Source: an uncultured delta proteobacterium
GTDB lineage: Bacteria; Desulfobacterota; Desulfomonilia; Desulfomonilales; Desulfomonilaceae
Length of the DNA stretch: 64,000 nucleotides
Assembly: GCA_963789265.1 (NCBI GenBank)
Contig: CAWBKB010000007.1
Span: 160,001-224,000, forward strand
Direction: 5' to 3'
Made by a program: the position numbers and the translations under genes. This document shows positions 19,804 through 54,986 of the stretch, one piece after another. Positions within the stretch are counted from its first letter, which is position 1; every line of letters starts with the position of its first letter. A model generated the notes under the pieces. The model did no database searches. It saw only the letters and a program-made list of their open reading frames with translations, and had not been told where the DNA came from.

Positions 19804-19888
19804 CAGCGGAATCAAGTTTGCGGTAGGTCGGGCCGTGCCCCATGCAAACTGGTGCAAATCGTGACGCGGACCACCCGAGGCGACCCCG

Positions 19889-20479
19889 ATGAGCGATGAA
19901 CGGATATCGGAATTACTGGCTTTTGCCAGATGGCTGGGAATCGGCGACGCAAAACTGCTGGGGGTTGACCGGATAAAGGTGGAAGATCGCTTCCGCAGCC
20001 AGTGCGCAGAGCCGCGCTGCCCTAATTACAATACTTCGATCAATTGCCCGCCGCACTCGATGACGCCCGGTTGGTTTCGAGAACACATCAAGGGGTTCAA
20101 TCTCGTCTTGGCCTTCAAGTTCGACATGCCTATGGAAGCCGTGAATGGAATAGAGCGGCGGGAGGCTTCATTGCTTTTGCACGAGACAACCGCGGCCATC
20201 GAGCACAAAGCCCGGTCGCTGGGATTCGAGCGCGCCCGCGGCTACTCATCGGGAGCCTGCAAGAAAACACTCTGTTACGAACACGCAGATTGTGCGGCGC
20301 TTCAGGACGGCGGCGAGTGCCGTCATTCGGACAAGGCACGGCCTTCACTTTCCGGCATGGGCGTAAATTGGTACGAATTATCAATATTCCTTGGTTGGTC
20401 GATGCAGAAGAACGAAGACGGGGATCTAAACCCCAGATCCGAAACCGTTATGATGGCCGGCCTGGTGTTCCTTGAGTGA
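19889..20479 (+). CDS. DUF2284-like Cys-rich metal-binding protein
   Basis: C...CPNY...CPP, GACKK.LC, CRH..ARPSLSGMGV pattern. Confidence 0.75.
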   Translation: MSDERISELLAFARWLGIGDAKLLGVDRIKVEDRFRSQCAEPRCPNYNTSINCPPHSMTPGWFREHIKGFNLVLAFKFDMPMEAVNGIERREASLLLHETTAAIEHKARSLGFERARGYSSGACKKTLCYEHADCAALQDGGECRHSDKARPSLSGMGVNWYELSIFLGWSMQKNEDGDLNPRSETVMMAGLVFLE

Positions 20480-22853: not shown

Positions 22854-22864
22854 GATCTACTACC

Positions 22865-23124
22865 AAAGTGACATTATACAGCGTTAGACCTAATAAGATT
22901 AGGACTTCCAGTGCAACATGTCAACGTCAGCGCGTGGTATATATACTATGCCCTCGTATCCCTAAAGTAACATCATACAGCGTTAGACCTAATAAGATTA
23001 GGACTTCCAGTGCAAAAAAGTAAGCTAATGATATAGTATATATACTATATCATTTGTCAGTCTTTTTTCCTTCTTGACTTGCCCGGTAACCTTGTCGTAT
23101 ATATACGACAAGGTTACCGGGCAA
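22865..23124. promoter_or_regulatory. Divergent promoter region with a 41-bp direct repeat and three GTATATATAC-centred palindromes
   Basis: Identical 41-mers at 22876-22916 and 22975-23015; perfect palindromes at 23027-23054 (28 bp) and 23079-23124 (46 bp); a third core near 22937. Confidence 0.8.
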
Positions 23125-23126
23125 CG

Positions 23127-24005
23127 ATGAAACAACGAAATACCCTGCAAAGGGCCAAACCCGAGATAGCAGCTTTTTTTGAATCCCGCCATGTAAAGAT
23201 TTTTTCACGCTCTGAACTCCGTCAGATTTTGAATCTCTACAGGGAGGAATGGGGCCTTCGAGCTTATGTGACTTTCCCCAAATTTAGCGCCTTTCTGATC
23301 GAAGAAATCGCTTTACAAATCGAAACCTGCTCTTTTTCTTCGCGACCTTACACAAGATTTACAGTTGGAGAAGTCCCTCTGTACAAACTTCTCCTGTCGC
23401 TGATCCCTGATTCTTATCTCTCGCATTTCACGGCTCTGGCTCTACATCAATTTACTGAGAAAATCCCCGATAAAATCTACTTGAATTTTCCACAGGAAAG
23501 GAAACTTCGAAAAAACCCTTCGCTAGATCAGAATTTGATAGATCGGGCCTTTCGGAGACCGGTAAGGGTTGCCAAGAATTCCGCCGCATTTCGTGGACAC
23601 GAGGTTCTGCTTCTGAACAGTATGGGGCACGGAGACCTGGGAATCATCGAGTCCAAGGGACCAGACGATTCGAAGATACGAATTACAGACAGAGAGAGGA
23701 CCCTCATAGATATCACGGTGAGACCGGTTTATTCGGGTGGAATTTCAAACGTGTTGGCGGCTTACAGGAAAGCCAAGGGGAAGGTATCGATTCGTAAACT
23801 GGCAGAAACGCTGAAGGCGTTAGATTTTGCTTATCCTTATAACCAGTCAATTGGATTCTGCCTTGAAAAATCGGGTTACATCGATTCCGAAATAGCCCTT
23901 CTCCGTGAATTCCCCATCCGATACGATTTCTATTTAGATTATCAGATGGCCGAAACCGACTATTCGAAAGACTGGCGACTGTACTTTCCAAAGGGTTTGG
24001 AATAG
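23127..24005 (+). CDS. Second AbiEi-like protein with no adjacent toxin
   Basis: YLSHFTALALH and ITDRERTLIDITVRPVYSGG parallel the AbiEi C-terminal motifs of the neighbouring gene. Confidence 0.75.
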   Translation: MKQRNTLQRAKPEIAAFFESRHVKIFSRSELRQILNLYREEWGLRAYVTFPKFSAFLIEEIALQIETCSFSSRPYTRFTVGEVPLYKLLLSLIPDSYLSHFTALALHQFTEKIPDKIYLNFPQERKLRKNPSLDQNLIDRAFRRPVRVAKNSAAFRGHEVLLLNSMGHGDLGIIESKGPDDSKIRITDRERTLIDITVRPVYSGGISNVLAAYRKAKGKVSIRKLAETLKALDFAYPYNQSIGFCLEKSGYIDSEIALLREFPIRYDFYLDYQMAETDYSKDWRLYFPKGLE

Positions 24006-24068
24006 GCCTTGTCTTTATTGAGTAGCACTCCGAGAACAAAAGGAGGCACGACGCGAAGTCGCGAAAGC

Positions 24069-24481
24069 ATGGCCAAGCGCAGGAAGGTCTGGATGTATTG
24101 CCCGCCCAAACCGCGTAAGCCCAAGGTGCCTGATGGGGTGAAGCTTGAACTCTCGTCAAAAGCCCTCCAGCTTATCGATGACTATCTTAGGCCGCTGCAC
24201 ATCAAGCCTCCGCCTAAGAATCCCGAGTTCAACTATGCCACCGAACTCTTCACTCGTTGGTACCAAAGCTACTTCTACTTCTGTACCACGCGCGATCGCC
24301 GGGGCCAAATGCCATGTCCCCCACATTCGAGCATCGCTTCGCGAGGATGGGGTACGAAGGAGAAGGTAAGTTCAACCTCTCATATATTCGTTACACAGGC
24401 CAATGGTGGGTAATCCATTCAGGTCTCACCATGGATGAATGCCTCACGGCTATAAGAGATGAGCCGCACTTCATTCCATAG
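24069..24481 (+). CDS. Hypothetical protein (frameshift near 24290)
   Basis: ORFs 24009..24413 and 24257..24481 join into a plausible ~137-aa protein (...RWYQSYFYFC / SPGPNAMSPTFEHRFARM...). Confidence 0.6.
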
Positions 24482-24870
24482 CGGCGGTAGGTCGGGCCGT
24501 GCCCGACGAAAACCGGCGGCAAGATCCCGGGGGTTCGTGCTGTAGGTGAGTTCCGGATTTGTTCGGTTATGTGACCAATGCAACTTGTCTCGCGAACGCC
24601 GGACTTGGACCCTTTTCTCCAGCAATGCGGTTGGCTTCACGCAGGAAGTCCTACTCGCTCAGACGCTTTCCAAGGTAATAGAATCAGGTAGGCTGGAGAC
24701 TGTCAATTTCTTCCTCGTTGCTCAATCAGGACATATTTGACCCCAACGATTCGTTATTGCCGGTTTTTGCGTGACCGAAGCTAAGAAACGTTAGATATGT
24801 GCTATTATGGTTTATCAAGTAGACTGAAAAGCCTTGAAATATCCGAGCCGGCAATTGAAGGGACGGATGC

Positions 24871-25578
24871 ATGAAATCTAAGCTCATGTCCATGGTTGAC
24901 GTTGATAAGGCAAAGCAATTCTTAGGGGACGTTGCTGTTCTAGCAAACTTGCCTGACGGGGCACTGAGAGGATTGGAAGAGGTGGTGCCCAAAGTTGCCG
25001 AAACCCACTCAGACCGGGATACACTTCAATTGCAGGAACAGACCGCCCAGCGCTTGGCCTTAGAACTGCCTAAGCTGAAGAGCGCTCTTGATGCCTCGCA
25101 ATTCTTCTTTTACCGGTTTAGTACGGAAGAGGAAGGCACTGAAGATTCTGTCTCGGACATTGTCCAAGATCTAGTGGAACTCAAAATCGTGCTTCCGAAT
25201 CGAATGGATTCGTTAACCAAGTATTTGACATCCCTAAGAAAATACGCCATCGATTTCGGTAGAATAAGAGTCAAAGCCCGAAGCACAACGATCAAGTGTC
25301 TTCCGGTCCTGAGCGGCATTGAGGTGGCCATAGATTATAGACCCGTCATGAAGCATCAATTTCAGCCAAGTGACAAAATTGACGATTATGAGCCAGAGTG
25401 CCTCGGCTTAGTCGCCGTGCCCGTGGTCAAACTAGAGTTGAAATGGGGACAAACTGACAACCATTTCATGTTTCAGACGGACAAAGCGACAATCCAAACA
25501 GTGATTGATTTCTTGAAGGGCGCTCAAAAAGATATGGAAGCAGCGGAACGGTTTCTTAACTTGGATGTTCTTGGATAG
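24871..25578 (+). CDS. Hypothetical protein with a COMM-domain-like C-terminus
   Basis: Helical N-terminal half, then LPVLSGIEVAIDYR...AVPVVKLEL...FMFQTDKATIQTVIDFLKGAQKDM. ORF is solid; the fold call is by eye. Confidence 0.6.
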   Translation: MKSKLMSMVDVDKAKQFLGDVAVLANLPDGALRGLEEVVPKVAETHSDRDTLQLQEQTAQRLALELPKLKSALDASQFFFYRFSTEEEGTEDSVSDIVQDLVELKIVLPNRMDSLTKYLTSLRKYAIDFGRIRVKARSTTIKCLPVLSGIEVAIDYRPVMKHQFQPSDKIDDYEPECLGLVAVPVVKLELKWGQTDNHFMFQTDKATIQTVIDFLKGAQKDMEAAERFLNLDVLG

Positions 25579-25593
25579 CGGCAGGGCACAGAT

Positions 25594-26052
25594 ATGGCTA
25601 AGATTATCCCTCTACGAGACCAACAAGAAAACACAAGGAGCTTCGGACCATTCTTGAGCGCGCCAAGAACCATGGAAGAGGGTGCAACGAAGGAGCGGGG
25701 CATTGATTGGCTTGACTTGCGAGATTTCGTGCCCGGCGAAAGTGAGCGAGCAGAAGTCGCCACCAAATATGGGCATCTCGACTGGACCGGCTATGTGCGT
25801 CCAATGGAGCCAGCGGACCTATTTGTTCCTGGTTACAGGTCTAAGGGAGCGAGATCAAGGAAGACAATCCGGCTGGTCTCTTTAGCTTTGAGTTCATCTA
25901 TTTCTAGCCTGATGTTTGCTGGCGGCCTGTTGTCTTATAGCATTGGGAATCTGCCCTCCCCTCTTTTCTTTTTTTCAATCGGCTTTCCGGCGCTGGGGGT
26001 GGCCATCGGGTCTTTCATTGCGTTGATGGAACAGGGATACCATGACGAATAA
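25594..26052 (+). CDS. Hypothetical membrane protein (two C-terminal TM segments)
   Basis: Starts 15 nt after the previous stop; two hydrophobic stretches. Confidence 0.6.
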   Translation: MAKIIPLRDQQENTRSFGPFLSAPRTMEEGATKERGIDWLDLRDFVPGESERAEVATKYGHLDWTGYVRPMEPADLFVPGYRSKGARSRKTIRLVSLALSSSISSLMFAGGLLSYSIGNLPSPLFFFSIGFPALGVAIGSFIALMEQGYHDE

Positions 26053-26278
26053 AGGCCAGACAACCTCGACCCGGTGGTTCAAGGATCTCTTACAGCACCT
26101 TCCACTGAAAAAAATAACGAGGGCACAAGCCGGCAACTACGTAATGGATGGCATAGGTGCCCTGTGCTTTATTGCCTTCATGTTCACGAAGCCCCCACCA
26201 ACCCATGCCCTCATTGCTCTCGTCTCTATCCTGTTGACTTTTGTCTGGTGTCATAACGTATCGCGCCCGAGACGTTAG
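26042..26278 (+). CDS. Small two-TM hypothetical protein
   Basis: Overlaps the previous gene by 11 nt; two hydrophobic stretches. Confidence 0.55.
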   Translation: MTNKGQTTSTRWFKDLLQHLPLKKITRAQAGNYVMDGIGALCFIAFMFTKPPPTHALIALVSILLTFVWCHNVSRPRR

Positions 26279-26443
26279 TAAGAGCTTGGAGGGGTGAGAG
26301 AATGAGGCTAGAATTGTTAGGATCAACGGAGACGGGGTAGTCTAAAGCCTCTTTTCCGACGATGCAGTTCGTTTCGCTGACCACATCCGCTACGCGCCCC
26401 GAGAAAAGAGTGATCTGCAGTTTGGGAGAAAGAGTAAAGACAA

Positions 26444-27556
26444 GTGCCTGATAATAAAAACCAGCACTATGTGCCTCGATTTTATTTGAAAAATTTTTCA
26501 GATCACGGCGGGCGCACCATTAACCTATTTAATATTAAGAGAAGGCTCTCTGTGAGAAATGCACCTTTGCGACAACAATGTTGTGAACCATATTTTTATG
26601 GCAAGACTCCTGAAATAGAAAAAATATTTCAAGAACTTGAAAACATGGTGTCCCGAACAATCAATAACATATTGTCGACCTCCACAATTCCTCCTCGACA
26701 TTCAAGGGAATATGCTGAACTTCTCATCTATTTGATTGTGCAACGCCAGAGGACGAAGACTGCTGCCGAGGAATGTGACGAAGTATCTGACCAAATGTGT
26801 AAGATTATGCTTCGAAAAGATCCCGAATTGGATGCAGAGACCCTGGCTCACCTCAATGACGTGAGAATAGTTACTACGAATCCAACGGCAATGCCCATGC
26901 TCATTGCCGTAAGAGAATTCCCTTTAGCGCTCGATTTGGAGGCAAAAGTCATCTCTAACCGATCAAATGAGCCGTTTATCACTAGTGACAATCCCGTCGT
27001 GTTTTACAACCAATATATGGAAAACTTCCAAGGAGCTAGTTGTACGGGGTTGGCGTCGCTGGGTCTCCAGATGTTCCTGCCTTTATCCGGTAGAATTATG
27101 CTGCACTTTTACGATCCTAGCGTATATAGAATCAGGACGAACGACTCGAACGTCTGTGAAATTAGCAGTGATGCGGAGTCGCTTAAATTCAATCAGTTGC
27201 AATGGTTGAACGCTCGTGAAAACGTCTACTACTCTGATCAGTCAACACCAATTTCTATATCTTCTCAGGCGCAACTATTCCTGAGGAATCACTCACACAG
27301 CATTCCGATAGTCAGGGAATATCCTATAGGCGGGAACGAAACGCGGTTCATGATTCATAAGTCGGATCAACGAACAAGGCTTCGGCCTAGTTTCGCCAGC
27401 ATCAGAAAGTCAAAGAAGAAATTGCGCCATTCGCTGCAATGGCCCGCCGTTCGTAATAAGAATGTTGTGGAAGCACTTCAGCATTTCGGGAAAACGAATG
27501 AAGGCCGGGCTTGGAGCGGAAATGATTTCTTGAACTTTTTGCATCGGGGGAGATAG
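26444..27556 (+). CDS. DUF4238-domain protein
   Basis: QHYVPRFYLKNF, FITSDNPVV, LPLS motifs; AT-rich. Confidence 0.85.
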   Translation: MPDNKNQHYVPRFYLKNFSDHGGRTINLFNIKRRLSVRNAPLRQQCCEPYFYGKTPEIEKIFQELENMVSRTINNILSTSTIPPRHSREYAELLIYLIVQRQRTKTAAEECDEVSDQMCKIMLRKDPELDAETLAHLNDVRIVTTNPTAMPMLIAVREFPLALDLEAKVISNRSNEPFITSDNPVVFYNQYMENFQGASCTGLASLGLQMFLPLSGRIMLHFYDPSVYRIRTNDSNVCEISSDAESLKFNQLQWLNARENVYYSDQSTPISISSQAQLFLRNHSHSIPIVREYPIGGNETRFMIHKSDQRTRLRPSFASIRKSKKKLRHSLQWPAVRNKNVVEALQHFGKTNEGRAWSGNDFLNFLHRGR

Positions 27557-27657
27557 TAAGTCAAGCCCGCACCTGACGCTCCCGGCGGTCACAGGCTGCC
27601 CTACGCGCCTGCGATCTTGACAGGAGGCACATTAAAGACCTCATAATTCATGGCCTT

Positions 27658-27855
27658 TCACATCGTCCCTTGGACGGACCCGAACGTTCTTTTCGATCCC
27701 CGCCGACCTCTTCGCCGTGGCAACCTCAAGCTCACATCTACTATTGTAGATTCATCCAATCTTGAGGCGTGGTTCCGAAGTACCTGGCCAAACGGAGGGC
27801 TGTGTCTGCTGTGATACTGCTTTTCTCCGTGATAATGCGGTTGATCCTGCCGGCG
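27658..27855 (-). pseudogene. higA: Truncated HigA antitoxin remnant
   Basis: GRINRIITEKSSITADTALRLARYFGTTPQDWMNLQ then stops; no 5' end; DNA similar to ~30575-30770. Confidence 0.8.
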
Positions 27856-27928
27856 TTCGGGGAAACCATACTTATTTCGGTCCTGCTTTCCACGCCCTGC
27901 CTGGCAATCCATAGCGCCGGGCTCAACC

Positions 27929-28564
27929 TTAGCTTAATAACCCCACAAGCACCGCGGTCACAACAATTTGTAGCGCAACCACGGCCGTAATCCAATGCGG
28001 CCTGTGTGCCAAGAATCTTTCCGGGCCGGGCACTGCTTTCAAAAAGAAAGAGGCATTAGCCAGATTAAAGAGTAGGATTGTCCAAAAGAGTGCCCTGCCG
28101 CCTCCGTATATCCAGCAGCAGAAAATCCCGTAGATTGTCTCGAATACGAAGGCAACAGCGGGCTTCTCATAGAGCCCCAGACCGATCTTTCTTTTGTCCA
28201 GAAATGGCGCGATGGCAATGTCACGGGCATGACTGATCAGGTCAAGCACAAGGTGAGAACATATCCCCAGCGAGACGGCTGTTGCTATATTGATTTCCTT
28301 GAAGCCCAAAGCAATAATTATCCATGCGCCGGCTGCCAAAACAACAGTGGAGGCAATAGAGTGAGAAAAAGGCATAAACTCAAGATGTACGTCGCTGACC
28401 GAGGTCACGTTGTTTTCAGTTGTTGTCTTTTCCACACCCAAAAAGTTTAACGCGACCCAGAGGATTTCTATAAGTTGAACTGACACCAATATTACGGCCA
28501 TCGGTACATCGGGATATATCTTTTTGATAATCAGACCGGTGGCTGCGTGATTTATAGCGAACAT
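27929..28564 (-). CDS. Membrane protein, metal-dependent hydrolase-like
   Basis: Hydrophobic; N-terminal His, FSHS and SHLVLD motifs. Confidence 0.7.
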   Translation of the reverse strand: MFAINHAATGLIIKKIYPDVPMAVILVSVQLIEILWVALNFLGVEKTTTENNVTSVSDVHLEFMPFSHSIASTVVLAAGAWIIIALGFKEINIATAVSLGICSHLVLDLISHARDIAIAPFLDKRKIGLGLYEKPAVAFVFETIYGIFCCWIYGGGRALFWTILLFNLANASFFLKAVPGPERFLAHRPHWITAVVALQIVVTAVLVGLLS

Positions 28565-41999: not shown

Positions 42000-42087
42000 T
42001 GTCATTGCGAGCGAAGCGAGGCAATCTCATTTCTGGAGAGCGTCCAGAACCGAGATTGCTTCGTCGCTTTGCTCCTCGCAATGACAT
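42000..42087. repeat. REP-like palindrome TGTCATTGCGAG...GCAATCTC / GAGATTGC...CTCGCAATGACA
   Basis: Long inverted repeat; the same family occurs at ~17366-17510. Confidence 0.8.
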
Positions 42088-42290: not shown

Positions 42291-44715
42291 ATGATTGAGC
42301 GAACGATAAAGACGAGCATATACGCGCACATATCAGTGTGGGCCCTAATATTTTGCTGCTTGTACCTCACGAGCCTTCACAGCTATCTATTGTTCCACAC
42401 GCTGGTAGAGCTATTCAGCATCGCGGTGGCGTGGGACATATTCTTCATCGCCTGGAACTCACGCCGACTGTTGGCCAACAATTATCTTCTTTTCCTGGGG
42501 ATTTCCTACCTCTTTGTCGGTTGTATCGATCTGGCGCACACCATGGCCTACAAAGGCATGGGCATTTTTGCGGCATCCAGGTCCGACTTGGCCTCTCAAC
42601 TCTGGATTGCGGGTAGGTTTGTCCAAAGCTTCTCTTTGTTGGCTGCACCCTTTTTTCTAGGGCGACGGCTAAGACCGTATGTAGTCATTGCCGCCTTTTC
42701 ACTGGTTTGTGCTGCGCTATTCGCATCCATCTTCTACTGGAAAATTTTCCCCGACACCTACCTGGACGGTGTTGGGCTCACAGGGTTCAAGATCTGGAGT
42801 GAGTACGGCATCTGTCTGATTCTCGTTGCAGCCGCACTGCTGCTGTACAAACACAGGGACCGGTTCGATCCAGGTGTGTTGAAGCTGTTGATCGGCTCCA
42901 TGTGTGTCACTGTGGCCTCGGAATTGGTGTTTACCGTATACGTGGACGTGTACGGCTTTTCCAATCTAGTCGGTCATTATCTTAAGGTCATTTCCTTCTA
43001 CCTGGTCTACAGGGCAATCATACAGACCGGCTTGAATAAGCCTTACGATCTGATGTTCAGGGAACTTAAGAAAGGGCAGGAAGCGCTGGCCGCCGGCCTT
43101 GCCGATCTGCAAAGGTCCAGTGCGGAGACAAACGCTTTGCTCGTCGCCTCACGAGCGCTTCTGAAGCATCGCGATTTTGCCGCATCGGCACGGACAATCT
43201 TTGATGCGTGCAAGGAGGCCATTGGAGCCAAGTCCGGGTACATTGCACTGTTGGATAGCCACTGCACGGATAATGACGTTATGTTTCTTGATTCAGGCGA
43301 ATTGCCTTGCAGCGTCGATCCCAAGCTCCCTATGCCGATTCGAGGTCTTCGCGCGGAAGCGTATCGTACTGGAGAGGTAGTCTGCGAAAACAACTTCTCC
43401 GAGAGCAAATGGGTGAAATTCCTCCCTCACGGCCATGTCTGCCTCGAAAACGTTATGTTCGCTCCGCTGATGCTCGAGGAAAAAGCTGTGGGCCTGCTCG
43501 GTCTGGCAAACAAACCGGGAGGCTTTACCGATAATGACGCCCGCACAGCCGCTGCTTTTGCCGAGTTCGCTTCCATCGGCCTGCTTAATAGCCTGACCCT
43601 CGAATCCCTTGCGCACAGTGAAGAGCGTTTTAGGACAGTTGTAGAAACTGCGAATGATGCTATCATATCCGTTGACAGCCACGGCAACGTGGTTTACTGG
43701 AACAAAGCCGCCGAGCATATCTTCGGCTATTCGGCCAAGGAAATTGTGGGCGAGCCCCTCTCCCTGATAATTCCTGAACAATTCCGTGCAGCCCACCAAA
43801 ACGCATTGCAAGATGTAGTCTCAAACTCGAAATCGCACCCTCCTGCAAGGACTGTTGAGGTAGCGGGTCTGAGAAAAGATGGCGAGGAATTTCCGGCAGG
43901 ATTGTCAATTGCAGCTTGGGAAACAAGAGAAGGGAGATTTTTTACCGGTATCCTGCGGGACATCACTACACGCAAGCGCGCCCAAGAGGCTTTGCAGAGC
44001 ACATTGGCCGAACTGGAACGCTCCAATGCCGAGTTGCAGCAATTTGCCTATGTCGCGTCACATGACCTGCAGGAGCCCCTGCGCATGGTATCAAGTTACG
44101 TTCAACTTCTCGACCGTCGCTATAAAGACAAACTTGACAAAGATGCAGCCGAATTCATGGGCTACGCGGTCGAGGGTGCCCGACACATGCGGCGACTCAT
44201 CAACGGCCTGCTGCAATACTCCCGTGTAGGAACACATGGAAAGGCCTTCGAGATTGTTCCCTGTGAGAAGGTATTGGATACGGCATTAGCCAACTTGCGG
44301 ATGTTGCTCGCCGAATCGGGCGCCCAAGTTACCCGTGATCCGCTCCCGACAGTGAATGCGGACTTTACGCAACTCCTGCAACTCTTTCAAAATCTGATCG
44401 ACAATGCTTGCAAATTTCGCGATGATGATCCTCCGCAGATTCACATCTCCGCAAGGCAAGCGTATAATCAATGGCTTTTCTCGGTGCGTGACAACGGGAT
44501 AGGAATTGATCCGGAGTATGCGGAACGGATATTTATTATATTTCAACGCTTGCACAATAGAGAAGAATTTCCCGGTACCGGCGTAGGATTGGCGATTTGC
44601 AAGAAGATTGTCGAGCGCCACGGCGGCAAGATTTGGGTTGAATCGGAACCGGGTGCGGGTACCTACTTTCTGTTTCACCATGCCCGGAAATGATACTCAG
44701 ATGCGGCGACAATAG
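42291..44715 (+). CDS. Membrane sensor histidine kinase, MASE3-GAF-PAS-HisKA-HATPase (late frameshift at ~44663)
   Basis: YLLFHTLVELFSI TM region, [34 protein letters not shown]. Confidence 0.9.
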
Positions 44716-44796
44716 AGCTTAAATGGTAAACCGGCCTGGACGGCACCTCCTGTCGGAACAGCGCGACTACGCACAATTCCGGGTGTTCCGGACACA

Positions 44797-45444
44797 ATGA
44801 GGAAAATGAGTACGCCGATGGATCTACTAGTGAAGGCATTGCTTGACGGCGATCAGATTCAGGCTGTTGCCGCAGCCAGAAGCCTTCGTGACACGGGGGT
44901 CGAACACGAGCGCATGGTCACTGAGGGGATAGAAGTGGCGATGGGGCAATTGGACACCAAGTGCACGATGGAGCAGTTCAACTTACTGGAAATCATGCTT
45001 GTGGGGCGTGCAGCGATGGGAGTCATAAAGGAGCTCTTTCCAGCGGGCACACCTTCACTTCGGACTAAGGGAACGGTTGTGCTGGCCAGTCCGGAGGGGG
45101 ACGTACACGACTTGGGGAAGAACGTCCTCAAGGCAGTATTGACGGCAAAAGCCTACCATGTCGTGGATTGTGGCAAGGATTGTCCCGTAGAGAGACTGAT
45201 TAGCGCAGCGGAACAAGAAGGAGCGCTTGCTGTCGCAGTCAGCGGCTTGATGACCAGCCTGATCCCACAGGTGCGACAGATCAGGGACAAAATGACTAAA
45301 CGGGGACTCGGTCACATTAAGGTGATGGCCGGCGGAGCAGCATTGAAGCAAGCTTCCGCAGAGAGTCTAAACGTCGATTTCGTAGCTCAGACCGCTTTCG
45401 ATGGCGCACGCTATCTTGATCGGATAGCCGGAGGTGGGCAATGA
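44797..45444 (+). CDS. Corrinoid (cobalamin-binding) protein, MtaC-like
   Basis: Helical cap plus GDVHDLGKN (DxHxxG), SGLM, GGA. Confidence 0.92.
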   Translation: MRKMSTPMDLLVKALLDGDQIQAVAAARSLRDTGVEHERMVTEGIEVAMGQLDTKCTMEQFNLLEIMLVGRAAMGVIKELFPAGTPSLRTKGTVVLASPEGDVHDLGKNVLKAVLTAKAYHVVDCGKDCPVERLISAAEQEGALAVAVSGLMTSLIPQVRQIRDKMTKRGLGHIKVMAGGAALKQASAESLNVDFVAQTAFDGARYLDRIAGGGQ

Positions 45445-46454
45445 ACAGCGTCGACCGGATCAAGGCCGCGGTGAATTTCGACCCGCCCGATTACGTGCCG
45501 GTGATCGCTCAGGTTTTCGGCCATGCCGCGACTTTGGCTGGGATTCCCCTGGGCGATTATGTCAAAAGTGGCAAACTGTTGGCGCGTTGTCAGATTCAAG
45601 CCCTGAAACACTATGACTACGATGCGGTCTTTGCTTTGATGGATGCGAATGTTGAAACTGAGGCCGCGGGCTCTGCCCTGACCTATCGAGCTGACCGGTA
45701 TCCAAGTGTCGCGACTTATGCTTTTTCGGATGGAACTAACCTGGACAGAGCAGAGGTACCTGATCCGCACCGAGCGGGGCGCATGCCGGAATTGCTGGAA
45801 GCCGCCGGGATTCTGCGCCGAGAGGTGGGCGATGATGTGCTTGTTGTGGGCTGCGTGTTAGGACCCATGACCCTGGCAACACAACTGCTCGGCATCGAAG
45901 CGACCCTCTATTTGGCCGCGGACGATCCGGAACGATTCTCCTGTTTGCTTGACTTTGCCACCGAAATTGCCATTCGGTTCGGCATTTCACAGATCGAAGC
46001 CGGCGCGCATCTACCCATAGTTTTCAACCCGTCGGCCTCGCCCGCTGTTATTCCGTATCAATTCTTCCGCGAAATTGAACTGCCTCGTCTCAGGAAAGTC
46101 TTCGCAGCCTTTAAGCTGGCTGGGGCTGCGGCCAACTGGCTTCATGTTGCGGGGCCGGCCGAGCCTATCCTATCCCTTTATCCTCAGGCCGGGGTGGACA
46201 TCGCGAATATTGATTACGAGGTTGATCCGGAGGATGCCCGGAGAGCGCTTCCACAGACTTGCCTCAATGGCAACATCAAACCCCTGGCCTTTGTTGAGGC
46301 GACTCCTGATGTGATTGCCGATGAGTCTTCCAGATTGATGAATCTTTTCGGAGATCGTGGAGGCTTTATCATGTCGTCCGGTTGTGAGATTCCGCCGGAA
46401 TCAAGACCTGAAAATATTTCCGCTATGGTTGCGGCAGCGAGAGAGAGAATGTAA
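45441..46454 (+). CDS. MT2 / UROD-family methyltransferase (MtaA/CmuA-like)
   Basis: GRMP, GPMTLA, GNI.P, GFIMSSGCEIP; ATGA overlap with the corrinoid protein. Confidence 0.85.
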   Translation: MNSVDRIKAAVNFDPPDYVPVIAQVFGHAATLAGIPLGDYVKSGKLLARCQIQALKHYDYDAVFALMDANVETEAAGSALTYRADRYPSVATYAFSDGTNLDRAEVPDPHRAGRMPELLEAAGILRREVGDDVLVVGCVLGPMTLATQLLGIEATLYLAADDPERFSCLLDFATEIAIRFGISQIEAGAHLPIVFNPSASPAVIPYQFFREIELPRLRKVFAAFKLAGAAANWLHVAGPAEPILSLYPQAGVDIANIDYEVDPEDARRALPQTCLNGNIKPLAFVEATPDVIADESSRLMNLFGDRGGFIMSSGCEIPPESRPENISAMVAAARERM

Positions 46455-46595
46455 CTCAGTGAGCTTTAAAGCAAGCCACGCGAAAAGTTGATTTCCCCTC
46501 CTTTTTAATGGGAGGCAGAGGAGTTTTTTGGGATAACCTATTGAAAATCCCCCTTTAGAGAAGGGGGACTTTGAGGGCCTGACGGGACGCCTGAG

Positions 46596-48261
46596 GTGCC
46601 CACGACCGAAGCAACCAGCTCTAAATTAATGCCTGTGGGAGGTAATACTCTGCCGACCCTGACCATCAAATCGGAAAAAATCGAACGTCGTATCCCGTTT
46701 GACCCCGGAGCATCCTTGCGTGAAATCCTGGACGAGGCCGACGTGCGGGTTCGTGCAGGATGCAAAGGGACTGGTGCATGCGGTCTGTGTCTCGTGCGGA
46801 TTGAAGCCGGACGAGTCGGTGCACCGGGGCCGAATGAGAATACCCATCTGGATAGCTCACAACTTGCTCAGGGCATTCGATTGGCCTGCCAAGTAATTCC
46901 CGAGCAAGATTTGCAGATTGTGATCCTTGCCCCAGCTCCCAAAGCGGATTGGAAAAGCCTTCCCCAAGGAGACAGACGACGTAACGGTCGAGGCCGCGCC
47001 TTCCCACTGGGAGATGCGCCGACAGACGTGAAAGAACCTTATGGTGTGGCAGTGGATCTGGGCACAAGTCACCTAAGTCTTTCGCTGCTCGATCTTGCCG
47101 GCGGCGAATGCCTGGCAGGGCGTTATGGCCCCAACCCTCAGATGCTTTTCGGTTCAGATGTCATGACACGGCTTATCACCGCGTCTGAGTCTTCCCAGCA
47201 GGCGCAGGTGATGAGCCGACAAATCGTCATAGCAATAGGCGAAGCACTGTTGGATATCGCCTCCAGAGAGGGGATCGATCTTCAACGAGTGGTGAGGCTT
47301 GCTCTGGTCGGAAACACTGCAATGCTGGCACTGTTGTCAGGGCGAAATTACAGTCGGTTGATTCAACCGAGCCACTGGACCAAAGCCGTCGATTGTCTGC
47401 CTCAAAACACGGAAACGTGGGCTGAAGCTTGGGGCATTCATCCCAAGGCGAGCATACAGGTCATCCCGCCTCTGGCCGGCTTTGTGGGCTCCGATTTGCT
47501 GGCGGGCGTGGTTACGACCCGCCTGACTGAAGACGGAGTCGGCTGCCTTCTCATTGATTTCGGCGCCAATTCCGAGATAGCCCTGTGGGACGGACAAGCC
47601 TTGTGGGTCACCTCTGCCGCTGGGGGGCCTGCCTTTGAACGGAGTGGCATCGAATGCGGACTGCCCGCGGAAACGGGAGCCATTTATAGGGTACAGCGTG
47701 CAGCAGAATGGAATGCTTAATTTTGCAGTCATCGGCGACCAACAAGCGCGCGGCATCTGCGGTTCGGGCTTGGTAGATCTGATTGCCAACCTGGTCAGGA
47801 CAGGTAGATTGACTAACATGGGCCGGTTCACACCGTCTGTTCCGGGAAACGAATTTACGCTCGTGCGAGGTGAGCCGGACATCATTCTGACCAAGAGGGG
47901 TGTAGACGTTTTTCAGCGCGGCAAAGCAGCCATTGGGGCAGGCGTGCATGTATTGCTGAAGCAGGCGGGCATGAGGTACAAGGATTTGCAGCGAATTTGC
48001 GTCGGCGGCGCTTTCGGCAGTTTCCTGGATATCGCCAACGCCCAGGAGATCGGGTTGCTGCCCAAGATTCAACCAGAGCTTGTGGAGCTTCACGGAAACA
48101 CGGCATTGGCCGGTTGCGAAGACGCGATACTGTCACACTTGGCTTCTCAACGTCTCGCGAACCTCAGAGATCGCCTAAAAGTTATCAATTTATCGCAGTG
48201 TCTCAATTTTGACGACATATTCTTGGAGCATTTGTACCTCCAACCGTCGCAAGGAGAGTGA
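46596..48261 (+). CDS. ASKHA-family corrinoid reductive activator (RACo/RamA-like) with [2Fe-2S] domain (frameshift near 47690)
   Basis: CKGTGACGLC...RLAC, AVDLGTS, NPQ..FGSDV, GFVGSD, AAGGPAFE, GICGSG, GGAFG, GNTALAG. Confidence 0.9.
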
Positions 48262-50004
48262 GCTACGGATACCGGATCTCCAGGACAGGCGAATTATCTT
48301 GATGCCTTTATCAAGACCGCCCAATACCTCGCCGGCTTGACGATCCAACAGGATTTGTGGATCGAGACGGGAAAACTTCTGGTCAATTTTTGGGGAGCGG
48401 ATCTAGGCGCCTTTGGAGAACGCCTTACAAACGGGGAAATAGTAATTCGCCCTTGGATCTTCTCGGATGAGTTTTCCAAACGAATGGACTTTGCATCAGA
48501 GGCCCAGGAAAGTGTCGCCGAGGTACTGGATGGTGGTTTCCTAACATGGCGAATAATTTCGTCTTCGCCGGAAACGCTGGTGGTAGCCTTCTTGCCGGTC
48601 ACCGGGGAAAACCGGGTCATGAGAGTGTTGCTGGTGGCGCACAGGATGTCTGGACCACCTCCAAGAGATCTGCTCAATGTGTACCTAGCTCTCGCAGGTC
48701 TTGTGGGAACAACAGCCGAGCGTCTGGCTTCGGAAGCGGAACTGAGGAAACAGCGCCGGCATCTCGAGATACAGATTGCTCAACGTAAGAGTGCGGAAGA
48801 GGCTCTGCGGGAAAAAGAACAGTTTCTTACCAATATTTTTGAGAGCATCCAAGATGGTATAAGCATACTAGATAGCGAGCTGAACATTGTACGAACCAAT
48901 TCGACAATGGATCGATGGTATTCAACCTCAATGCCTCTCGTTGGCAAAAAATGCTTTGAAGCATACCATAATGCAAATCACCCTTGTGAAAAATGCCCTG
49001 TTGCTCAGGCTCTAAAGACCGGCCAAACCACCTTCGAAATTGTTCCCCGAGAAGGAGCGAAAGGTCATATTGAAGGATGGCTCGAACTGTATGCTTTTCC
49101 TCTTGTAGCTCCAGGCTCGGATCAAGTCATGGGTGTAATCGAATACTTCCGGGATATCAGTGACCGCAAGAAAGCAGAAGAAGCGCTACGTACCAGCGAA
49201 GAGCGCCATCGGGCTGAGCTTGAGCAACGAATCAAAGAACGCACCTCCGAGTTACATGTAGCCAATGAACGATTAAGGGATGAAATTACCGAGCGGAAAC
49301 GGACAGCATCTGAATTGGAACGGTCTAACGCCGAGTTGCAGCAATTTGCTTACGTCGCGTCCCATGACTTGCAAGAGCCGCTCCGCATGGTCTCAAGCTA
49401 CGTGCAGCTTCTCGATCGCCGCTACAGAGACAAACTTGATGAGGACGCGGACGAGTTTATGGCTTACGCTGTTGACGGAGCCAAACGCATGCAGGGTCTC
49501 ATTAATGGTCTGCTGCAATATTCCCGTGTAGGAACTCACGGTAAGGCTTTCGAGTCTGTTGACTGTGAAACGGTCCTGGATAAGGCGTTGGCCAACTTGC
49601 GGATGTTGCTCGCCGAATCGGGCGCGCAGGTCACCCGAGATCCTCTCCCCACAGTGGATGCGGACTTTACACAACTCTTGCAACTGTTTCAAAATCTGAT
49701 CGACAACGCTTGCAAATTTCGCGATGATGAGCCCCCTCAGATTCACATCTCCGCCGGGCAGGCGCACAATCAATGGCTCTTCTCAGTGCGTGACAACGGG
49801 ATAGGGATTGATCCGGAGTATGCGGAGAGAATATTTGTCATATTTCAACGCCTGCACAATAGAATGGAATTTCCGGGAACCGGTCTCGGGCTGGCAATTT
49901 GCAAGAAGATCGTTGAGCGCCACGGCGGCAAAATTTGGGTTGAGTCCCAAGACGGCAAGGGCACAACCTTCTACTTCACAATCCCGGAAAGAAAGGCATG
50001 CTGA
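48262..50004 (+). CDS. Cytoplasmic PAS histidine kinase (start uncertain)
   Basis: Frame is open from 48262; first start codon is TTG 48337. Unknown N-domain, Cys-rich [13 protein letters not shown], HATPase. Confidence 0.88.
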
Positions 50005-50453
50005 TGTACGGTAGAAGCAACATCCACGCTATCGAGATCCTTCTGGTTGAAGATAATCCCGGTGATGTGCGCCTCACTCGAGAAGCGCTCAAAGATGGCA
50101 AGATAGTCAATAATTTGCACGTGGCCGAGGACGGCGTAGAAGCCCTCGCATATCTCAGGCGTGAGGGAAAGTTTCACGATTCGGTACGGCCGGAACTCAT
50201 TCTCCTGGACCTCAACCTCCCCAAGAAAGACGGCCGGCAAGTTTTAGCTGAAATCAAAGCGGACAAGACCTTGAAACGCATCCCCGTCGTGATCTTAACC
50301 TCTTCGGAGGCTGAACAGGACATTGTCAAGAGCTATAATCTTCACGCAAATTGCTACGTAACGAAGCCCGTCGACCTCGATCAGTTTATTAGTGTAGTAA
50401 AATCTATTGAATATTTCTGGTTATCGGTCGTTAAGCTTCCGCCGGAGGAATGA
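49998..50453 (+). CDS. Single-domain response regulator, Rcp1-type
   Basis: [29 protein letters not shown]. Confidence 0.93.
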
Positions 50454-50454
50454 A

Positions 50455-52510
50455 ATGAGAGACGGCCCACTCCGAGTGCTACTGATCGAAGATAATCCCG
50501 GGGACGTCCGCCTAATCAAAGAAATGCTGGTTGAGGCCGGAAAGACGAACATAAGCATTGAATCCGCCGACACCTTGTCAGCCGGCCTGGACCTGCTTAC
50601 CACAGGCGATTTCGACGCAGCCCTGCTGGATCTCGGATTGCCCGACAGCCAAGGTCTCGCCACCTTGGGCAAAGTCTATGTCAGAGCCCCCGGCATCCCT
50701 ATCGTGGTTCTAACAGGCCAAGAGGATGAGGCCGTGGCGCTTGAAGCAGTAAAACAAGGAGCCCAGGATTATCTCGTCAAGGGAGAGGTGGACGAAAAGC
50801 TTCTCGTTCGGTCCATTCACTACGCGGTTGAACGGCGGCGACTCCTGGCCGAGTTGGAAATCAGCCGGGCTAGTTTCACCAGCATAGTGGAAAAGAGCGC
50901 TGACGGCATATTCGTGCTGGGAAACGACAGCTCCGTGCTCTATGCCAATCCGGCGGCGACTGAGCTGATGGGCAAGTGCGGAGAAGATCTTCTGGGCACG
51001 TACTTTCCCCTTCCCGCTGTCCCGGGCGAGAGGACGGAATTGGAAATAGCACACGGTGAAGGCGCCGCAGGCACCGGTGAAATACGAGTGAGACGCACCG
51101 ACTGGAATGGAAACCCTGCATTTTTGACCGTGTTGCGTGACATTACCAAGCGCAAACGAGCAGAGGAGGCTTTGCGCCAAAGCGAGGGAAGATTTCGTGC
51201 CATTTTCGAGAGCGCTCAGGACACCATGTTCATTAAGGATCGGCAATTGAAATACACGATGGTAAATCCTGCAATGGCGAAGCTCTTGAACCGCCCTACC
51301 TCTGAAATAGTGGGCCGCACCTCTGAAGAGATCTTTGGGCGGCAGACCGGTAAACACCTCAGAGAGGTAGACCTGCGCGTTCTGGACGGACAGACCATCG
51401 AAGAAGAGCGGGTGCGACCGATAAACGGCATCCCCCTTACCTTTCACGATGTACGAGTCCCTTTGCGAGACGGCACCGGGGTGATTGTCGGCGTGTTTGG
51501 AATAAGCCGCGACATAACCGGCCGCAAGACGGTGGAGCTTCCACACCGACAAGCTGCCGACGAATACCCGTCAAAGGCCATGAAGGCGATCATGAGGCGA
51601 GTCAGCTTCGCGGCGGAAACTGAATCCACAGTATTGCTGCTGGGAGAGAGCGGCAGCGGCAAAGACTTCCTGGCCAGATACATCCACGATCACTCCAAGC
51701 GCGCGGACGGTCCCTATTGGGCCATCAACTGCGCTGCGGTCAGCGCTCAACTTGCGGAATCGGAGCTTTTCGGCCACGAACGCGGTGCTTTCACCGGAGC
51801 GCAAAGCCGTAAGCGAGGACATTTGGAACTTGCCGAAGGCGGAACTCTGCTACTGAACGAAGTCGGGGAACTCCCCCTCCCCTTGCAGGCGAAACTGCTG
51901 ACTTTTCTTGATACCAGGCAGTTTACCCGTGTGGGCGGAGAAAAGAACATCACTGTCAATGCAAGACTCATCGCTGCCACGAATCGGGACTTGGAGAAGG
52001 AAGTCGACGCCGGATGCTTCAGACAGGACCTTTTCTATCGCCTGAATGTGCTGAGTGTCACGGTTCCTCCGCTAAGGGAGAGGCGTGAAGATATCCCAAT
52101 ACTCATTCGAGAGATGATGACGCTACTTTGCACGGACATGCAGCTCCACGAAGTTCCTACTATCGACGCGGCGACCGTGAACGTGCTGAAAAGCTACGAC
52201 TGGCCGGGGAATGTGCGAGAACTTCGCAATGTGCTGGAGAGGGCGCTGATGTTGTCGGGCGGAGAGTGTATTAGCCTCGCGGGCCTTGGATTGGATACAA
52301 ACAATGGAAATGCCAAAGACTGGTCTCTCACGGTATGTTTCCCCTCTGGAGAATCCCTGAATGACATTACTCATAATGTGAAGCGTTCTCTTGTCACAGA
52401 GGCGCTTAGGCGCTCGGGAGGCAGCAGACAGGGAGCATCACGCTTGCTGGGTATTTCGCGGGTACTCACTCAAACATTACATGAAGGCATTGGGCCTGTC
52501 GTGGGATTGA
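50455..52510 (+). CDS. Sigma-54 activator, REC-PAS-PAS-AAA+-Fis HTH (late frameshift at ~52461)
   Basis: GESGSGKD, ESELFGHERGAFTGA, WPGNVREL; corrected end GISRYSLKHYMKALGLSWD*. Confidence 0.9.
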
Positions 52511-52949
52511 GTCACGTGGCGCAGGCTTTCCAGCCTGCGTTTTCTCGATTCGGATGATAGCAGACTGGAAAGTCTGCTCCACAGGTATAAGAGCTGGCCG
52601 CACAAATAACATTCCATGTCTCGCGGGCTCTGCCCGCAAACTGGCTCTATTTTACTGTTATAGTCGAGGCAGAGCCTCGCGATAGGCATTCCCAGGCAGA
52701 GCTTGGGAACGAGAAAAACGATTCAGACGGAGAATCATGGATCGGAACTACTGACCGTCATCGAATTCTTGATGCGGAAATTATATCCCTTTTTTCCAGA
52801 TTGCCGAAACGCCTTTGCTCGTCCCAATGTCTTAAATCATGATGGCAAACGGCGGACTGGCGTCACAATTCTCGTAGAGAATAGAAGATTTCTGCTATAA
52901 GGAACCTTAAGATTTCAAGGAATCTCCTGATTGTCCCCTAAAGGAACAG

Positions 52950-54374
52950 ATGGGACAAAGGAACCTAGTGTTGAAGAGGATGTGCATGATTTTGCCGTCA
53001 GGTCTTGAACAGATCGAAGCTGAACAGCTCAGTCTTTTTAGGGTGGACAGACAGACGTATGGTCCACCGGAAAAGGACAAACCTTCGGCCTTCAGCGACC
53101 CTGCGTTTGCCAACAACAAGATAATGCCTATTCATCGATGGGTACCTTGGATAGCCGGATTCTCTGCTGATTTCGTTCGGAACGCTTTATCTAACTATTT
53201 GAATCGGAAATCAACCGTCCTTGATCCGTTTGCTGGAGTTGGTACAACTGTGGTCGAAGGGGTTATGGCGGGTCATAATGCTATAGGTTTTGAGATCAAC
53301 CCTTACGCGGCTTTGGCGTGTCGCGTCAAGGTCAACGCATCCAGGATGTCTGCAGATGCTTTAAGGAACTGCATTTTACGGTTCCAAAATTTCTATAAGC
53401 AAAAAGTCTCTGGCGCATACACTCCCGTTAGCTCCCCCCCGTTAGGCTTCCGGACCAGAGCCTCGTTTTATAGCCCGGATGTATTACACAAGGTCCTGAC
53501 AATTCAAGATTTTATAAACCTTATCGAAGAGGATGATCTTCGAGACCTGTACAAGCTCGCCTTCGCTTCCACGATGGTCCGGTACTCGAATTATTCATAT
53601 GAGCCAAGCTTGAGCAGGCGTGTAAGCGCTGGGAAAAAGGATATCGACGACTTTCCTGTAGCCCGGACGATTTTGGAAAAACTGACGGAAATGCTGGAAG
53701 ATGTTGTCTGGTGCCAAGCTCATCCCGCCAAGGATCGGGTTTTCTCCAGAATCATCAATGATTCCTTTTTCCAGTATGAGAGGCACTTGGAGGCCGAGTC
53801 GGTTGATCTGATAATTACGTCGCCACCATACCTGAACAACTATCATTACAATCGGAATACTCGACCACACTTATACTGGTTAGGATACGTCAATAGTCCC
53901 AGAGACATGATACCCTTGGAGCAAGCAAACTTCGGCAAGTACTGGCAAACTGTTCGAGATGCTGAGAGAGTCGACTTGGACTTTTCCGCGCCGGATACCG
54001 ATCTAGCCGAACAGATTGAATTTCTGAGGACTCTTAATCCTGAAAAAGGAGTGTACGGTGGCAATGGCTGGGCCAACTACGCTGCATCATACTTTAATGA
54101 TTGTTACAAGTTTGCAAATGGCATCCGCTATGCGCTCAGACGCGGAGGTACGGCCTTAGTTGTCATCGGAAACAGTATATTACAGGGGACATTGATCGCA
54201 ACAGATCGGCATTTCGGCAAAATAGCCGAGTCCATCGGACTGGAATTGACCAATATTCACGTGCCGCGACCAACAAGAGTCGGAAATAGCATCATACAAT
54301 CGGAAGTCCGTGTAAAGAAAGCTAAGAGCTCTCATCAATTGTATGAGGCTGTAGTAGAAATCAGAAAACACTAA
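52950..54374 (+). CDS. Amino-DNA methyltransferase, probably N4-cytosine (start may be ~52980)
   Basis: Motif I LDPFAGVGTT precedes motif IV ITSPPY. Confidence 0.88.
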   Translation: MGQRNLVLKRMCMILPSGLEQIEAEQLSLFRVDRQTYGPPEKDKPSAFSDPAFANNKIMPIHRWVPWIAGFSADFVRNALSNYLNRKSTVLDPFAGVGTTVVEGVMAGHNAIGFEINPYAALACRVKVNASRMSADALRNCILRFQNFYKQKVSGAYTPVSSPPLGFRTRASFYSPDVLHKVLTIQDFINLIEEDDLRDLYKLAFASTMVRYSNYSYEPSLSRRVSAGKKDIDDFPVARTILEKLTEMLEDVVWCQAHPAKDRVFSRIINDSFFQYERHLEAESVDLIITSPPYLNNYHYNRNTRPHLYWLGYVNSPRDMIPLEQANFGKYWQTVRDAERVDLDFSAPDTDLAEQIEFLRTLNPEKGVYGGNGWANYAASYFNDCYKFANGIRYALRRGGTALVVIGNSILQGTLIATDRHFGKIAESIGLELTNIHVPRPTRVGNSIIQSEVRVKKAKSSHQLYEAVVEIRKH

Positions 54375-54986
54375 TCACGTAAAGTGGCCTAGCACCTCCT
54401 CAACAATTCTTTCCAGCGACGGTGCGGTTCCGGTCAAGCGATCCGCCCATGGTCTTCCTGGATGGAGAACATCCCACTCCGATTTTGCTTGATTGTACCT
54501 CCCCGCTCCAGGATCATGATTGCCGAAGCCATCGACAACCGTATTCCAGATAGGGGCAAATCTTCTAATAAGTTCTGCCTCAACCGCCCCGATCAGGTCA
54601 CTTTCAATGCCTCGAAGAATCATGAACCTGCAACGGAACTGGACGACCTGCAGGTTTGATGCCTGTGCAATGTTCCGAGCATGTTGTTTCAGTCTATTGA
54701 ACAAGGTTGAGCCTTCGCTTTGAGCAGTCTTACCGGTTCGCCATCCAGCAGGGACCGTTTTGCCGACATAAATTGGCTGTGCAGACGAATCCCGATTGAG
54801 GTCGGCCAAAGCGGCGTACAACTCAAAATCACCAGCGTAGTATAAAGCATAAATCCCGCTCCCTGAGAATCGATCAGTCGGTGGTAATTCGTGGACAGGG
54901 GTATGAGTAAAAAAGCGGATGGCTTCATCTACTACTCTTTGGAATTGAGCAGACCTGAAAATATGTAAAGCCAAGTTTACGGGCAT
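54375..54986 (-). CDS. Eco29kI-family GIY-YIG restriction endonuclease
   Basis: GIYALYY...IYVGK, DGFGNHDPG.GRYNQ.KS.WDVLHPGRPWA; convergent with and abutting the MTase. Confidence 0.9.
   Translation of the reverse strand: MPVNLALHIFRSAQFQRVVDEAIRFFTHTPVHELPPTDRFSGSGIYALYYAGDFELYAALADLNRDSSAQPIYVGKTVPAGWRTGKTAQSEGSTLFNRLKQHARNIAQASNLQVVQFRCRFMILRGIESDLIGAVEAELIRRFAPIWNTVVDGFGNHDPGAGRYNQAKSEWDVLHPGRPWADRLTGTAPSLERIVEEVLGHFT

Follow-up and report, generated by a model that had tools for sequence, protein, structure and literature searches.

Why should proteins of a corrinoid methyl-transfer pathway be encoded among histidine kinases and response regulators? The question is raised by positions 42291–52510 of a 64,000-nucleotide stretch of DNA, here called the window, from an uncultured delta proteobacterium of the Desulfomonilaceae, which lies on contig C7 of a 9-contig, 6.06 Mb genome (GCA_963789265.1, contig CAWBKB010000007.1, positions 160,001 to 224,000). 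An earlier note on this DNA had described seven co-directional genes: a first histidine kinase (HK1), a corrinoid protein (CoP), a methyltransferase of the acceptor-side type (MT2), a RACo/RamA-type activator, a second kinase (HK2), a receiver and a sigma-54 activator. All seven are present with these identities, as judged from the open reading frame (ORF) listing, the sequence and family scans, apart from the MT2 label, which is taken up below. The conserved unit is composed of four of them, namely CoP, a URO-D/MtaA-fold protein, RACo and a GAF-headed signalling protein represented here by HK2. That this cassette is a sensory input of some kind is, in our judgement, very probable.

The linkage was searched in both directions. 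A URO-D profile found 107 relatives among GTDB genomes, 79 of which were annotated by local hidden Markov models and underlie the genome-locus counts, and a reverse search anchored on the HK2 N-terminal domain found 119 relatives in metagenomes, 80 loci of which were counted. A CoP gene is present in 79/79 URO-D-anchored genome loci, and where at least 2.3 kb of downstream sequence is available the HK2-type GAF gene follows in 66/67 and RACo in 60/67. From the other side, all of the GAF-anchored metagenome loci that extend 3.4 kb or more upstream (47/47) carry CoP and URO-D genes, and 44/47 carry RACo. The association of the four genes is far above chance. What is attached to the GAF domain varies from locus to locus: among the 71 genome loci with this domain, 35 carry a kinase, 11 a hybrid kinase and 14 a GGDEF domain, the other 11 being truncated or unassigned (one is SpoIIE), and the metagenome loci hold 45 kinases, 13 hybrid kinases, seven HD-GYP and six GGDEF outputs, and nine other or truncated ones.

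A conserved seven-gene system was rejected, because three of the genes, those for HK1, receiver and sigma-54 activator, belong to the local setting only: the MASE3 domain of HK1 is found in 4/79 genome loci, a sigma-54 activator in 8/79, and of the three closest loci only L001 retains the complete seven-gene order, receiver included. Among the 557 unassigned ORFs neighbouring the 79 loci no family recurs in more than four loci. A Pfam scan of 50 of them (31 from recurring clusters and 19 immediate neighbours) detected no substrate-side methyltransferase (MT1), MtrH or pterin-binding protein, and there is no MT1 or methyl-acceptor gene in or beside the window cluster. A three-component catabolic system encodes both MT1 and MT2 with its CoP; the cassette has a single transferase-fold gene. 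The earlier proposal that the corrinoid proteins act as a sensory input is thus supported at the genomic level, by the reciprocal linkage, the swapped outputs and the lack of a recurrent MT1 or acceptor, and the triad does co-occur with signalling domains whichever gene is used as the anchor.

The core genes are also found fused to each other. Nine longer hits comprise eight CoP–URO-D fusions and one of CoP to RACo, and URO-D–RACo fusions are seen in L070, G379 and G049. In six members (L031, L053, L067, L152, L157 and P0208) the ATPase part of RACo has been deleted and its [2Fe-2S] (Fer2) domain is fused to the GAF kinase. A tandem duplication of CoP–URO-D was observed in L069. In L069 (8057–11929) and L070 (4492–6300) a Tll0287-like periplasmic domain stands ahead of the dedicated GAF, which suggests two-input sensing.

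How could such a cassette sense? We give about even odds to a reading in which the four core genes form a cobamide-based receptor, where an alkyl donor would set the cobalt state, the cobalt state would act on the GAF domain and the GAF domain on whichever output is attached. With ATP and its [2Fe-2S] cluster, RACo would keep CoP in the reactive Co(I) state, and the URO-D-fold enzyme would bring to the cobalt a small donor of methyl or alkyl groups, for which a methyl halide or a methylated sulfur compound is the likeliest candidate. The cassette brings no methyl acceptor with it, so that the resulting alkyl-Co(III) would be a metabolic dead end and could serve as the signal. The dedicated GAF domain would bind the corrinoid complex and pass its cobalt state to the attached kinase, and a cap cysteine of CoP (C56) would ligate cobalt or reset the state. 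In the window genome the signal would run from HK2 to the receiver and on to the sigma-54 activator, a pathway common to HK1. Gene content, reciprocal linkage, swapped outputs, the GAF fold and the residue patterns are observed; cofactor binding, ligand, protein contact and direction of signalling are predictions. In a broader form, we think it probable that the cassette represents a new receptor class, with the cobalt–carbon or cobalt–sulfur chemistry of a cobamide as the sensing event. ATP-primed Co(I) would trap a small gas or electrophile (methyl halide, methyl sulfide, N2O or NO), the cap cysteine would register this or reset the system, and an exchangeable GAF module would convey it to kinases, c-di-GMP enzymes or phosphatases in bacteria and archaea. 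If so, this would be a sensory input of a categorically new kind.

CoP (44797–45444, residues numbered from the ATG at 44797) consists of a four-helix cap and a Rossmann B12 domain (Pfam B12-binding), and its model (pLDDT 93.6) matches cap-on MetH (1bmt) with a TM-score of 0.86 and superposes also on CarH-type domains (TM 0.7–0.83). Residues D102, H104, G107, S149 and L151 are invariant in 66 loci, giving the His-on DxHxxG and SxL motifs. What sets the family apart is the cap helix L-x-x-K-C56-T57-x-E-x-F-N62-L-L-E, whose C56-T57 pair is invariant in 66/66 genome and 47/47 metagenome loci, and Cys at the C56 position occurs in 0/31 ordinary CoPs encoded by this genome and related ones. When the family is aligned with CoPs of solved structure, MttC and MetH among them, C56 takes the place of the Phe in the “GxxF” motif, a residue that we take to correspond to MetH F708, which covers the methyl group. 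Since C56 is placed where an aromatic residue covers the upper face of cobalt in ordinary CoPs, we infer that it is a switch or reset, acting either as upper ligand or as internal methyl acceptor. A second motif, D-C125-G-x-x-C129, has C129 invariant and C125 in 64/66, and both are lost in two distant C56-T57 relatives. The CarH signature GxxW and EH is absent from the CoP family, which has [DE]xKC-T ... LE-I at those positions.

The URO-D/MtaA-fold TIM-barrel protein (45441–46454) is the most conserved of the four, with 63% mean identity and many invariant barrel residues. It matches Pfam URO-D with an E-value of 7e-67, and its best PDB match with the family profile is MtaA (4ay7, 6.5e-35). 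Against TIGR01463 (MtaA/CmuA) it scores 151.2 bits, below the cut-off of 235.4; a true uroporphyrinogen decarboxylase was rejected, as its HemE score is 76 bits, where 303 are required, and lies below the score for MtaA. At the H-x-C zinc motif (LHICG in MtaA) the window has H235-x-A237, and across 66 loci the last residue is A in 62, T in three, P in one and C in none; the cysteine is likewise found in 0/58 metagenome loci. The protein retains H235, D258 and C315, the last in 64/66. The donor-side MT1s CmuA, MecE, MecC, CdmB and O-demethylases are URO-D-fold proteins, some of them act on haloalkanes, and CdmB is zinc-free (PMC13222342). The earlier label of an MT2 without its MT1 is doubtful: because URO-D folds include MT1s and the HxC thiolate of MtaA is lost, this is probably the substrate-side enzyme, and the missing partner would be the acceptor.

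RACo (46596–48261, starting at GTG 46596 or ATG 46629) joins a Fer2 [2Fe-2S] domain to an ASKHA ATPase (Pfam Fer2, Raco_middle and RACo_C_ter). In 108 full-length members the four [2Fe-2S] cysteines are kept in 107–108, D-x-G-T in 106–108 and GPAFE in 107–108; in D-F-G-T-N-S-E, T is found in 100/108 and A in 7/108, the window copy being of the A type. RACo scores below the AcsV and RamA equivalog cut-offs, and CoP, the URO-D protein and RACo all fall below the NCBIfam cut-offs. Fifty cassette-bearing genomes were searched for further RACo genes. All 50 have RACo, and 8/8 tested genomes whose cassette has lost it hold another. Reductive priming looks needed, because the RACo motifs are intact in the 108 members and RACo is encoded elsewhere where the cassette copy is lost.

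HK2 (48265–50004) starts with the domain that would receive the signal (about residues 5–155), followed by a coiled coil, PAS, HisKA and HATPase. The earlier note had left this N-terminal domain unassigned; it can now be assigned as a divergent GAF from its fold model, Foldseek and Atlas. The model (pLDDT 91.8) has the NifA GAF (8jrc) as best Foldseek match (E-value 2.5e-6, TM 0.62), followed by other GAFs, and aligns with Atlas models at TM 0.71–0.82. Pfam GAF hits are weak and limited to 10–14 of 66 family members, and PocR gives no match. In 219 aligned segments, conservation is concentrated on helix 1 (Q17 100%, Y18 98%, L22), F89 (99%), the SGF turn, the last helix (L134, Y137 93%, L138) and H123 (87%), while the lid region is least conserved (0.38) and no Cys is conserved. 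Because conservation lies on the outer helices, the lid is variable and there is no conserved Cys, we infer a docking surface and not a chromophore pocket.

The cassette is widely scattered. The closest named homologues of the window are in Desulfomonilaceae (85–89% identity), and further copies occur in Desulfobacteraceae, Geobacter, Nitrospirota, Anaerolineae, Oscillochloris, Ca. Chloroploca, Acidobacteriota, Gamma- and Alphaproteobacteria, Clostridia and the archaeal Methanoregulaceae. The HK2 N-terminal domain has 412 representatives at 50% clustering, 344 of them below 1e-10. Still, the cassette is rare: in 400 other genomes of the phylum the GAF was matched once strongly and once weakly, and CoPs of the C-T type five times. 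In trees of 53 loci with all four genes intact (midpoint rooted, FastTree supports), the gene trees have 13–18 of 17–21 strong splits in common with at most one conflict, an agreement that kinship inflates. Host phyla are scattered on these trees and archaea nest among bacteria, and because the four gene trees agree while host taxa are scrambled, the pattern fits horizontal transfer of the cassette as a unit. By its annotation, a plasmid of the purple sulfur bacterium Ca. Thiodictyon syntrophicum carries genes in this order, with WP_100922686.1 as a putative cyclase, and in Desulfomonile tiedjei DCB-1 the URO-D protein AFM25312.1 and the kinase AFM25310.1 are two accession numbers apart.

Several observations weigh against the alkyl-donor receptor. 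The two locus sets have some organisms in common, and motifs of close relatives were used to find both, so that they describe the family core; the single roomy genome locus without the GAF gene is L013, in which frames are broken. No neighbouring gene points to a methyl donor, and specificity for haloalkanes would follow by analogy only, the URO-D protein being 26% identical to MecE and far from CdmB (E-value 6.7e-9). The barrel may even be a non-catalytic adaptor, because His235 is lost too, in distant cassettes and in some closer relatives. Two distant C-T-type cassettes (L205:4330–10110 in G379 and L206:4717–11145 in G049) have a URO-D–RACo fusion without His235 followed by a HAMP membrane kinase lacking the dedicated GAF; the G049 kinase bears a PilJ/NarX-type sensor, whose PilJ domain we take to contain a nitrate-sensor-like P-box, and this hints at nitrogen-oxide or redox sensing and not at methyl donors. 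An acceptor in trans is possible in the window genome, which has acetyl-CoA synthase and six other, ordinary CoPs, and in the 33/50 hosts with acetyl-CoA synthase. The other 17/50 hosts, which have no match, speak for the receptor, and in 12 of these the cassette RACo is the sole one; such absences depend on the completeness of metagenome-assembled genomes (MAGs), which is not stated. The pattern of RACo in trans could arise by chance with p ~0.09, which is not significant alone.

The best surviving alternative, which we regard as possible although clearly less likely than the alkyl-donor receptor, is an oxidant or redox sensor. RACo would keep reducing CoP to Co(I), and either an oxidant (O2, NO, nitrite or N2O) or a shortage of low-potential electrons or ATP would leave it as Co(II) or thiolato-Co, a state that the URO-D protein, as an adaptor, would present to GAF. 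Co(I) reacts with O2 and N2O. RACo, intact and apparently required, agrees with this scheme, as do the three conserved cysteines of CoP, a zinc site that is degenerate and has lost its His in distant members, and the [2Fe-2S] domain that was kept and fused to GAF after loss of the ATPase in L031, L053, L067, L152 and L157. The PilJ-domain kinase fed by the distant cassette and the Tll0287-like domain added in L069 and L070 point the same way. On the other hand, the strong conservation of the URO-D protein, with its many invariant barrel residues, seems to exceed what an adaptor needs, simpler redox sensors are common, and the nitrogen-oxide hint comes from two loci. A literature search on N2O sensing found no relevant paper among those listed.

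It is doubtful that the three proteins make or consume a metabolite, such as a methylated thiol, that diffuses to GAF and is bound there without any contact with CoP. GAF domains commonly bind small molecules, H123 of this GAF is well conserved, and the linkage data fit equally well. However, the lid is the least conserved part of the GAF and its conserved polar residues are on helices, no second transferase is present for a full cycle, and the Fer2–GAF fusions suggest physical proximity.

Equally improbable in our estimate is an ordinary catabolic or detoxifying methyltransferase, bifunctional like MtsA/CmuA or with its acceptor elsewhere, that merely stands beside its own regulator as in mec. 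In its favour, URO-D-fold enzymes can act as MT1 without an MtaB/MttB-type partner (PMC13222342), mecABC encodes a kinase, a CoP and a methyltransferase (10.1101/2021.08.30.458270), and acetyl-CoA synthase is present in the window genome and in 33/50 hosts. But GGDEF, HD-GYP and SpoIIE outputs are not operon regulators, and the conserved genes include no DNA-binding regulator; no acceptor comes with the cassette, which is also found in hosts without an acetyl-CoA synthase match and on the plasmid of a purple sulfur bacterium; and the CoP cap is remodelled, the cassette lying apart from the mec genes in Ca. Dichloromethanomonas. A sensor of cobamide availability (apo versus holo) or of light is very unlikely, since neither RACo nor a transferase would be required for either, the GxxW/EH signature of photoreceptors (PMC11796333) is absent and cobamide genes recur in only 3/79 loci, despite the superposition of CoP on CarH-type domains and a nearby CobS gene in L074 and L079.

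The alkyl-donor receptor can be compared with several known systems. MtaA/MtaC/RamA and CdmBCA/CmuA have three folds in common with the cassette, namely a URO-D TIM barrel, a His-on CoP and a RACo/RamA activator, but the cassette differs in having no second transferase or acceptor, no HxC, Cys-Thr in place of the cap Phe and an obligate link to a GAF gene. The mec cassette of anaerobic dichloromethane degraders (MecABCDEFGHIJ) likewise combines a histidine kinase, a CoP, URO-D methyltransferases and RACo; a PocR domain of MecA is proposed to sense dichloromethane and to regulate MecD, and MecF performs the tetrahydrofolate acceptor step (10.1101/2021.08.30.458270). By contrast, our cassette has no acceptor, a different GAF family and variable outputs. 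Identity of the two was rejected, as there is no MtrH-type gene and no PocR, the identity to MecE is low (26%) and both coexist in Ca. Dichloromethanomonas elyunquensis (L075 / L211, G401:C26), whose cassette has a GGDEF output and forms the most divergent tree branch; there the cassette and the mec genes are on different contigs, and the mec-neighbouring CoP retains the ordinary Phe. CarH, AerR and photocobilins also use a cap and Rossmann B12 module with a specialised upper-face pocket for signalling, and C56 falls at the W of CarH GxxW by sequence register, but these proteins rely on light and adenosylcobalamin, form one chain with their outputs and work with neither RACo nor a transferase (PMC11796333, PMC8717448).

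DhaR/DhaK/DhaL of E. coli uses enzyme subunits as co-sensors, with a GAF-PAS input that reads their cofactor load by protein contact (PMC10084136); the likeness to our cassette is in working only, since the enzymes are unrelated, DhaL carries ADP/ATP as cofactor, DhaKL functions as a kinase in catabolism and there is one transcription factor as output. We regard DhaR/DhaL as the best works-like analogy. Sensing by MsmS and RdmS of Methanosarcina acetivorans is presumably haem- or thiol-based. These two sensor kinases are tied to corrinoid methyltransferase genes, but according to PMC11784639 they have no H-box and do not act as autokinases, and they do not come with a CoP–URO-D–RACo–GAF cassette. 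No published description of the four-gene cassette was found, which is not proof, as most subscription literature and the supplements (the mec bioRxiv supplement and the CdmB Supplementary Data 3 could list members) were outside the search.

Known B12-based signalling uses light (CarH, photocobilins) or riboswitches, and a receptor made from half of a methyl-transfer system would be a third mode, based on dark chemistry. If true, it would be one of the few sensors that consume ATP to remain primed, and anaerobes of peat, sediment and soil could detect climate-relevant methyl halides, methyl sulfides and nitrogen oxides; regulation of haloalkane pathways is largely unexplored, according to PMC13222342. 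Hundreds of genes that are labelled “uroporphyrinogen decarboxylase”, or from which methylotrophy is read in MAGs, probably stand for neither. The system is amenable: its four proteins are soluble, the cobalt states can be told apart by spectroscopy, one invariant Cys is open to mutation, and there are cultured hosts such as Desulfomonile tiedjei DCB-1 and Ca. Thiodictyon syntrophicum Cad16T.

In the window, the cassette is preceded by HK1 (42291–44715), a MASE3-GAF-PAS-HisKA-HATPase histidine kinase outside the conserved unit, and followed by a stand-alone receiver (49998–50453; Pfam Response_reg), which we take to be Rcp1-type as labelled in the earlier note and which is the likely phospho-acceptor of both kinases, and by the local output, a REC-PAS-PAS-sigma54-HTH activator (50455–52510). 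Because their kinase cores are 89% identical, HK1 and HK2 probably feed the same receiver and activator. At the DNA level the cores (44010–44690 and 49310–49990) are 83% identical, a likeness that appears to reflect recent duplication or gene conversion. The Walker B motif of the sigma-54 activator (around 51850–51880) reads LLLNE, with N for D, and NE is common to 7/22 activators matched in the genome.

These ends depend on three extra bases in the assembly. As assembled, an extra base at 47695 breaks the RACo gene into two reading frames, and those at 44662 and 52460 shift the C-termini of HK1 and the sigma-54 activator; HK1 ends at 44693 as assembled and at 44715 once the base is removed, and the end of the activator at 52510 holds without the extra base. 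All three are absent from contigs of run X1, a run that may itself be the source sample of the window and whose contigs are of low depth (one contig each, depth 2.8–4.1), and the RACo one is absent also from three relatives (L001–L003), so that the insertions are most likely assembly errors. A RACo pseudogene was rejected on the same grounds.

Among the gene junctions read earlier, 45441/45444, 49998/50004 and 50453/50455 stand, whereas 48261/48262 is right only in that the HK2 frame opens directly behind the RACo stop: no ATG, GTG or TTG is found at 48262, and the frame reads GCT-ACG, with ACG at 48265. Among 129 RACo/GAF junctions, ATG stands three bases past the stop in 32 and ACG in seven, six of which are close relatives sharing the GC[TC]-ACG of the window (L001, L002, L003, L083, L084 and L086); L002 and L086 have an additional ATG three codons downstream. 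Because ACG sits where 32 other loci have ATG and six close relatives keep it, HK2 probably initiates at this non-canonical codon, and a lineage-wide change from ATG to ACG may throttle or couple translation of the kinase. A RACo–HK2 fusion by UGA read-through, conceivable from the continuous frames, was rejected since the stop in L083 is TAA at the same GCT-ACG junction and the relative frame is another one in about half of the loci. Gene callers shorten HK2-type proteins, with starts at least 25 codons late in P0129, P0130 and P0163.

A sequence scan gave 12 promoter-like sites against 7.0 ± 2.9 expected by chance, and seven terminators against 11.1, and neither count is informative. Palindromic REP-like repeats flank the cluster (42000–42087 and 52584–52660) and are matched by many unrelated contigs. 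Directly downstream (52950–54986) lie a convergent DNA methyltransferase and an Eco29kI-type GIY-YIG restriction endonuclease. Elsewhere in the window, a PUFA/PKS-like (polyunsaturated fatty acid/polyketide synthase) biosynthetic locus (1220–20479) encodes AdoHcyase, SAM synthetase, MATE, a B12 radical-SAM protein, PPTase, a dehydratase, an iterative PKS of 1716 aa, a FabK/NMO-like protein, a reductase and a methyltransferase. It is followed by a segment of lower GC (21058–28564) with an AbiEii-type toxin-antitoxin pair, DUF4238 and unassigned ORFs, possibly a defence island.

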